This document shows positions 1,881 to 2,134 of a stretch of 5,202 nt of DNA, piece by piece. Every line of letters starts with the position of its first letter. Position 1 is the stretch's first letter. The stretch comes from a virus (lineage: Duplodnaviria; Heunggongvirae; Uroviricota; Caudoviricetes), in IMG/VR virus record IMGVR_UViG_2537561712_000012, one strand, 5' to 3'. The notes under the pieces were generated by a model, which worked only from the letters and a program-made list of their open reading frames with translations, ran no database searches and was not told the origin of the DNA. The position numbers and the translations under genes were made by a program.

Positions 1881-2134
1881 ATGGAGTTTAATGGCCATGA
1901 GTATCAAGCGGTCAAAAAGAAGTTCATCTATTCATTGAAAGCATAAGGCCATCTGAGTATATCCGTAATGATCTGGATATTGTCTATAACATCAATGACC
2001 GGACGATAGATATCGGTGAGCAGCGTCCTGTATGGCAGGGTGAGGCAGGTGAAAAAACGTCCTGCCATCAACAAGAATCAAGTGCATCCGCTCTCTGGAC
2101 AGATGGAAAATTTATTGGATGCAAAAAGATATGA
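1881..2134 (+). pseudogene. Small gene just after cI, apparently split between two frames (ATG 1881 ORF of 21 aa, then a 78-codon open frame 1901..2134 in the -1 frame with no canonical start); frameshifted gene or recoding candidate
   Basis: AGAGGA then ATG at 1881 directly after the cI stop. Frame 0 stops at 1944..1946. The -1 frame is open from 1901 to the TGA at 2132..2134 and contains no ATG, GTG or TTG. The two frames overlap at C-AAA-AAG (1913..1919). Confidence 0.3.

Follow-up and report, generated by a model that had tools for sequence, protein, structure and literature searches.

A two-frame opening behind cI of a Shiga-toxin prophage is in all likelihood a decaying DUF3024 pseudogene

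The window, the whole stretch of 5,202 nucleotides analysed here (IMG/VR record IMGVR_UViG_2537561712_000012), represents the immunity region of a Shiga-toxin prophage of the Sp5/VT2-Sakai type. The ORF list and public annotations place cII (447-743) and cro (885-1100) on the minus strand and cI (about 1218-1871, with its stop codon TAA at 1869-1871) on the plus strand. Downstream, all on the plus strand, are a gene split across two frames (1881-2134), orf22 (2373-2894, 173 aa), a pL-like promoter (3405-3433) and N, which extends to 3895. Positions 1700-2400 are identical at 700 of 701 positions to Nil2, VT2-Sakai, Stx2 II, 1717, 2851 and many O157:H7 chromosomes, and the single mismatch is a substitution within cI at position 1724. 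The remnant described below (1881-2220) is located between cI and pL, has the same orientation as cI and is followed by a probable terminator. In lambdoid prophages, the slot between cI and pL holds genes that are expressed in the lysogen, such as exclusion and defence cargo.

The split gene lies directly behind cI. The cI stop codon is followed by AGAGGA (1872-1877) and by an ATG at 1881, which opens a frame of 21 codons (MEFNGHEYQAVKKKFIYSLKA, frame 0) that ends at a stop codon at 1944-1946. In the -1 frame no stop occurs between 1901 and a TGA at 2132-2134, a stretch of 77 sense codons plus that stop. It is preceded by a stop at 1898-1900 and has no ATG, GTG or TTG start; a CTG at 1973 and several ATH codons are present. 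The two frames overlap at C-AAA-AAG (1913-1919), which reads GTC AAA AAG in frame 0. This layout had been set out correctly in a preliminary description made from the letters of the window, which proposed that a -1 shift at C-AAA-AAG would give a protein of about 85 aa. A -1 shift at the site does yield the sequence that was written there, with a length of 84 aa. Its junction reads AVKK in frame 0 followed by EVHL in the -1 frame (junction peptide ...YQAVKKEVHLFIESIR...).

To place this gene among its relatives we searched for distant matches and found a second class at about 81% nucleotide identity, with members in about 158 genomes of E. coli and in 98 phage records (933W, Stx2-86, P27, 24B and the Salmonella phage ST160 among them). 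Four annotated examples of this class each contain one uninterrupted ORF of 342 nt, which encodes 113 aa and starts 9 nt after the cI stop codon. These ORFs are annotated as DUF3024 domain-containing proteins, L0084 (AAD25429.1) in the case of 933W, and the family corresponds to Pfam PF11225, the PADLOC candidate PDC-S43 and phrog_3467. When 1.84 billion proteins were searched with a profile built from 18 intact members, 731 cluster representatives matched, and almost every one of the best 150 is a single ORF of 110-117 aa that matches the profile from end to end. The preliminary description had suggested aligning homologous prophages to see whether the two frames are fused. They are, by one extra A at the A-run, which bears out that a real gene starts at ATG 1881 and that its frame breaks at this run.

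For an intact member, AlphaFold predicts (pLDDT 85.1) a helix (residues 5-22), five strands (33-38, 42-50, 59-71, 76-81 and 87-93) and a second helix (96-104). The best match by sequence to a solved structure, AvrPto, was not significant (E = 0.07). Our literature search found no paper mentioning DUF3024 or L0084, and it met PDC-S43 only as a PADLOC prediction. The cargo that follows the DUF3024 gene varies: stk, DUF6978 plus DUF1828, or a ParA-like gene after intact copies, and orf22 after the pseudogene. The fixed position after cI, followed by variable cargo, suggests that DUF3024 is an accessory gene expressed in the lysogen, which we regard as a lead. Lambdoid phages are known to have lysogenic cargo of this kind behind cI, for example lambda rexAB and 933W stk.

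We aligned the window with four intact copies at the DNA level (933W L0084, ST160 gp23, SH2026Stx1 and RMDEC465). The remnant occupies 1881-2220 on the plus strand and measures 340 nt instead of the 342 nt of the intact copies, with the ancestral start at ATG 1881 and the ancestral stop at TAA 2218-2220. Three lesions interrupt it. Lesion 1 is a one-base deletion in an A-run, leaving A5 at 1914-1918; in the intact copies the run is six bases long, being A6 in those of E. coli type and AAAAAG in ST160. The alignment reads GGTC-AAAAAGAAG in the window and GGTCAAAAAAGAAG in the homologues, and the intact copies continue in a single frame as GTC AAA AAA GAA GTT, encoding V K K E V. This deletion coincides with the proposed slippery site. 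Lesion 2 lies in the A6 run at 2052-2057, where 933W-type copies have AAACAAA and the window has lost one base (GGTGAAA-AAAC as opposed to GGTGAAACAAAC), shifting the ancestral frame a second time. Lesion 3 converts the TGG codon of Trp87 in the ancestral frame to TAA at 2137-2139 (ATG AAA TAA CAC in the window, ATG AAA TGG CAT in the homologues). This Trp is invariant in all 19 intact homologues aligned and is encoded by TGG in the four copies aligned as DNA. In that DNA alignment, both one-base gaps and the TGG-to-TAA change are confined to the window.

A three-frame translation recovers the ancestral protein in consecutive plus-strand segments: frame 0 at 1881-1918 (MEFNGHEYQAVKK), frame -1 at 1919-2053 (EVHLFIES...WQGEAGE) and frame +1 at 2056-2217 (NVLPSTRIKCIRSLDRWKIYWMQKDMK and HLYSTELSLTDALEVVRADPACCFFR, separated by the stop codon of lesion 3). 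The repaired translation lines up collinearly with the family along its whole length (residues 1-113); in a search of 5.8 billion clusters, the intact protein nearest to it had 82% identity. The repaired translation scores 89.1 bits against PF11225 (cutoff 24.9) over residues 6-112, covering profile positions 4-111 of 112, and matches PDC-S43 with E = 2.1e-33. The 84-aa product of the preliminary description reaches 28.7 bits over residues 5-59 only. An uninterrupted ORF of about 110-117 aa spanning the whole domain is absent from the window copy.

The anatomy of the remnant also explains the two open frames. The residual ORF of 21 codons (1881-1946, plus strand) consists of 13 native codons followed by 8 out-of-frame codons, and it is probably still translated from its intact start. 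The -1 opening (1901-2134, plus strand), counted as 78 codons in the preliminary description, is open as described there, but it falls into two parts. Only 1919-2053 is ancestral coding frame. The last 27 codons (2054-2134), which supply the tail KTSCHQQESSASALWTDGKFIGCKKI of the trans-frame product, follow the reading frame of no homologue and lack stops by chance; with a stop probability of about 5% per codon, a stretch of this length stays open in roughly one case in four.

Signs of decay extend beyond the three lesions. At 6 columns that do not vary among the 19 intact homologues, the repaired protein has a change of its own (A2E, Q41R, Y69C, R82Q, W87stop and G113R). Other members have 0-2 such private changes each, even those that are only 58-65% identical. 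The residual Shine-Dalgarno sequence AGAGGA (1872-1877, plus strand) is GGAGGA in the four intact copies, with A instead of G at alignment column 13. The count of private changes and the weakened Shine-Dalgarno sequence point to relaxed constraint, as judged from sequence comparison. Pairwise dN/dS between the repaired and intact copies is 0.09-0.18, including the part that is now in the +1 frame, and is the same among intact copies, a measure that does not discriminate relaxed selection and is less informative here than private changes at invariant columns. Because the low dN/dS includes the part now in the +1 frame, the selected frame downstream of 2054 was the ancestral one (+1) and not -1. 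Because it is no higher than among intact copies, most of the 19% divergence must have arisen while the gene still worked; the inactivation is recent relative to it, and the neutral period must therefore be short.

The allele is widespread. Full-length matches to 1872-2290 in the band of at least 99% identity were found among 234 complete E. coli genomes, and the 22 matches listed are all 100.0% identical. The same segment is identical in 44 phage records, including the Sanger-era genomes of VT2-Sakai, Nil2 and Stx2 II, and in 15 of the 19 IMG/VR contigs that contain the 3' part. The TAA of lesion 3 is present in all 19 IMG/VR contigs with a window-type 3' part. Exact-pattern scans of IMG/VR, a metagenome collection and the GTDB species genomes gave 0 matches to the window-type flank with A6, while the flank with A5 was found in 3 metagenome contigs. 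No close intact window-type allele was found, and a related-locus search of genome contigs was also empty.

A homopolymer error in sequencing or assembly, or an A-run of phase-variable length (a contingency locus), would account for the fact that both frameshifts sit in A-runs. The preliminary description had named sequencing error as an alternative. Two 'fused' proteins (P0022 and P0033) seem to point in this direction, but their assemblies have every regional A-run and one cI run one base short, and we take them as homopolymer errors typical of error-prone long reads. The same A5, A6 and TAA recur across the 234-genome sample, the 44 phage records and the IMG/VR contigs, that is, in hundreds of assemblies with Sanger-era phage genomes among them. 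The length of the first run is constant in every trustworthy assembly, and slippage could not reverse the TAA substitution. An explanation by error or phase variation thus has next to no probability.

Relatives of the window allele suggest how the decay may have proceeded. Two independent metagenome contigs (L028 and L034), which share the SNPs 1907C, 2005A and 2089A, contain lesions 1 and 3 and have A7 at the second site, reading GEK-N-VLPS. The intact homologue P0005 likewise reads GEKNVLPS. Because of these A7 alleles and the reading of P0005, lesion 2 is probably an A7-to-A6 contraction that is younger than lesions 1 and 3. The configuration of the two contigs shows a decay that, on this comparison, would have been stepwise. 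L009, a single Logan contig of the same 1907C/2005A/2089A sub-lineage, has A6 at lesion 2. An inserted T near window position 1941, about 25 nt beyond lesion 1, brings its frames 0 and -1 together again in an ORF of 84 aa (contig positions 40-294); this T may be either a real change or an assembly error.

Further relatives are mosaics. Three alleles (P0020, also contig L008; P0032, also contigs L012 and L013; and P0034) combine a 933W-type 5' end, in which the A6 is intact, with a window-type 3' end. They carry lesions 2 and 3, and each has a plain ORF of 84 aa. The crossover lies at about 1931-1952 in P0020/L008, at about 1973-1985 in P0032 (L012 and L013) and, judged from the protein sequence, further 3' in P0034. 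In the NCBI assembly contig L012, the allele is flanked by a different cI (234 aa) on its 5' side and by orf22 on its 3' side. L016 and L028 have their junction with a different cI at the cI end, and the divergence of L031 starts at 2249. The conserved DUF3024 sequence thus serves as a homologous-recombination linker between the immunity (cI) modules and the downstream cargo of Stx and lambdoid phages.

At least five distinct junctions between a cI type and the orf22 module occur within or at the edges of DUF3024 in these contigs (L008, L012, L013, L016, L028 and L031).

Programmed -1 frameshifting at C-AAA-AAG (1913-1919) would fuse the 13-codon head to the -1 frame, and the resulting protein of about 84 aa would be functional. 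Some observations speak for it. A good start site lies ahead of it, the -1 frame has no canonical start, and the tetramer A_AAG (1916-1919) is in the right register. The preliminary description had named A-AAG as a known slippage motif; in dnaX and the IS3/IS911 cassettes, an AAG lysine codon likewise follows a run of A's, and tRNA-Lys can re-pair on it in the -1 frame (PMC4066793). The heptamer C_AAA_AAG, however, is not of the canonical X_XXZ_ZZN type, whereas those cassettes shift on A_AAA_AAG or another true heptamer. The tetramer is the best in E. coli when a stimulator is present, with up to 5.6% frameshifting for A_AA.G only in combination with the IS3 pseudoknot; unstimulated tetramers gave 0.147%, compared to 0.112% for non-slippery controls (Sharma et al. 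2014, PMC4066793). The dnaX and IS911 sites have an upstream Shine-Dalgarno-like element and a downstream hairpin, and IS3 has a downstream pseudoknot, whereas we found no stimulator around the site in the window. Inspection by eye of 1895-1912 revealed no GGAGG-like element upstream of the site. The 71 nt at 1920-1990, folded without pseudoknots, have an energy of -8.8 kcal/mol (z = +0.66), a stability matched by 143 of 200 shuffles.

The comparison with homologues also speaks against programmed frameshifting. The two-frame layout of dnaX and the IS cassettes is conserved across their homologues, but the homologues of the window gene are one base longer and single-frame. No A6 allele of the window type occurs in any collection, and the layout is thus not conserved but a lineage-specific mutation. 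The product would be out of frame beyond residue 58 and, by the structural model, would keep the first helix and two strands and lack strands 3-5 and the C-terminal helix. The substitutions downstream of 2054 fit selection in the +1 frame, not in the -1 frame. With the site being a deletion scar in one allele, the homologues single-frame and no stimulator found, we reject the proposal of a programmed frameshift as exceedingly unlikely. A_AAG is the most shift-prone tetramer in E. coli, and a trace of the trans-frame product is likely to arise as noise.

Such a trace leads to another possibility, a leaky 'pseudo-pseudogene' in which about 58 residues of the DUF3024 N-terminus plus a tail are functional and are supplied in trace amounts by spontaneous slippage at the A-runs. 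The re-fused alleles speak for it. P0020, P0032 and P0034, with different crossovers, all have an uninterrupted ORF of 84 aa, and L009 gains the same ORF by its compensating T, 25 nt beyond lesion 1. There is precedent for corrective or 'savior indel' frameshifting (PMC5009743). However, the recombinants can be understood as ordinary mosaic exchange at the conserved 5' part, with lesions 2 and 3 inherited passively. Because exchange takes place at the conserved DUF3024 sequence, the re-fused 84-aa relatives are explained without selection for the fragment. The dominant allele, in the full-length copies sampled among 234 genomes, keeps all three lesions unchanged, the fragment would be unable to form the domain predicted by the structural model, and the expected yield is about 0.1% of an ORF that is already weakly initiated. 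We consider this leaky supply of a functional fragment very unlikely. That a trace N-terminal fragment is useful to the lysogen, and that the re-fused ORFs of 84 aa reflect selection for it, is in our estimate highly unlikely. If it were true, the fragment could for example be a dominant modulator of an intact DUF3024 protein encoded by a 933W-type prophage in the same cell. Prophages of both types (Sp5-type and 933W-type) are present in many O157 strains.

We conclude, with a probability of roughly 93%, that 1881-2220 is a decaying DUF3024 pseudogene that has three lesions, is predicted to make no functional protein and also serves as a mosaic junction. The decisive test was the alignment of homologous prophages, and relative to intact homologues at the orthologous position after cI it shows disabling lesions. 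933W L0084 and ST160 gp23 share with the window copy the slot after cI, the start context and 81% nucleotide identity, and both are intact, while the window copy has two one-base deletions, a nonsense codon and private changes. A frameshift mutation had been listed as an alternative in the preliminary description; it is supported, with a second deletion and a nonsense codon in addition. Some observations count against a pseudogene. The gene has kept its start codon and most of its Shine-Dalgarno sequence, pairwise dN/dS by itself gives no sign of relaxed constraint, and the uninterrupted ORFs of 84 aa (P0020, P0032, P0034 and L009) could be read as selection for an N-terminal fragment.

The history that fits best is as follows. 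The ancestor would have had a small DUF3024 gene behind cI, as in many lambdoid and P22-like prophages (933W L0084, ST160 gp23). The Sp5/VT2-Sakai-type allele would have been inactivated when the A6 run lost one A (now 1914-1918), a base was lost at 2052-2057 and Trp87 became TAA. A functional DUF3024 protein is predicted to be no longer made. Ribosomes starting at ATG 1881 would stop after 21 codons, at 1944-1946, and the remnant would form an untranslated 3' part of the cI (PRM) transcript up to a terminator at about 2242-2269. The conserved DUF3024 sequence would also act as the crossover point that joins different cI modules to the orf22 module. The C-AAA-AAG 'slippery site' would then be the scar of a homopolymer contraction.

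An intrinsic-terminator-like hairpin lies downstream of the remnant at 2242-2269 on the plus strand, with a GC-rich core (2246-2252/2257-2263) followed by T6 at 2264-2269. It folds with -15.9 kcal/mol (z = -4.1), and 0 of 200 shuffles are as stable. The automated terminator scan made no call at 2242-2269; the hairpin was obtained by direct folding. The cI (PRM) transcript probably ends here. The homologous stem of 933W has no T-run after it but TGATTC, and the 933W operon goes on through L0083 and stk as far as tM, annotated much further downstream. The 3' neighbours differ: a terminator and orf22 for the window copy, L0083/stk in 933W and a ParA-like gene in ST160. Where the cargo downstream is different, the T-run (2264-2269 in the window) may have been acquired, or it may have been kept.

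The finding is an ordinary one, and the gene is more decayed than could be seen from the window alone. It adds no new case of recoding; an A-run that appears to 'restore' a frame is more often a deletion scar than a signal. Its value lies mainly in annotation, since a stretch of the heavily studied Stx2 immunity region of Sakai Sp5/VT2-Sakai can now be assigned as a DUF3024 pseudogene. The locus also offers a small, clean example of stepwise gene decay via homopolymer contraction, and of a conserved gene as the crossover point between Stx phage immunity modules.

The label of a pseudogene is absent from all records checked. PGAP annotates a 54-aa protein with an apparent CTG start (WP_434087148.1, 1973-2134, plus strand) and a 66-aa protein with an apparent ATT start (WP_434088152.1, 1934-2134, plus strand). 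PA4-type phage records contain a 44-aa ORF starting with GTG (2016-2150, plus strand), and the Stx2 II record has an antisense ORF of 80 aa (2213-2455, minus strand). Nothing is annotated over the pseudogene in the Sakai and VT2-Sakai records. We count these mutually inconsistent fragment calls, or their absence, as support for the reading as a pseudogene.

Several minor observations concern the rest of the window. The substitution at position 1724 in cI gives G in the window (codon GGT, Gly), while all best matches in 5,426 complete E. coli genomes and the phage collection have A (Asp). The Gly form is also present in one noisy NCBI assembly (P0033) and matches the C-terminal domain of lambda cI. 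The orf22 product has no Pfam or PADLOC match and matches only phrog_2602; among the recombinants that were looked at (L009, L012 and L028), orf22 stays linked to the pseudogene's 3' part. Between orf22 and pL lies an ORF of 40 aa (3068-3190, plus strand) that is unannotated in the records checked. It is followed by a terminator-like hairpin at 3196-3217 (AACCCGGC...GCCGGGTT, then a T-rich tract). The Rfam scan gave no match in the pseudogene region, and its only real match in the window is the cIII thermoregulator Lambda_thermo (RF01804) at 4816-4874 on the plus strand (88.5 bits, E = 2.5e-21). This known element overlaps the start of the 54-aa cIII ORF (4829-4993).
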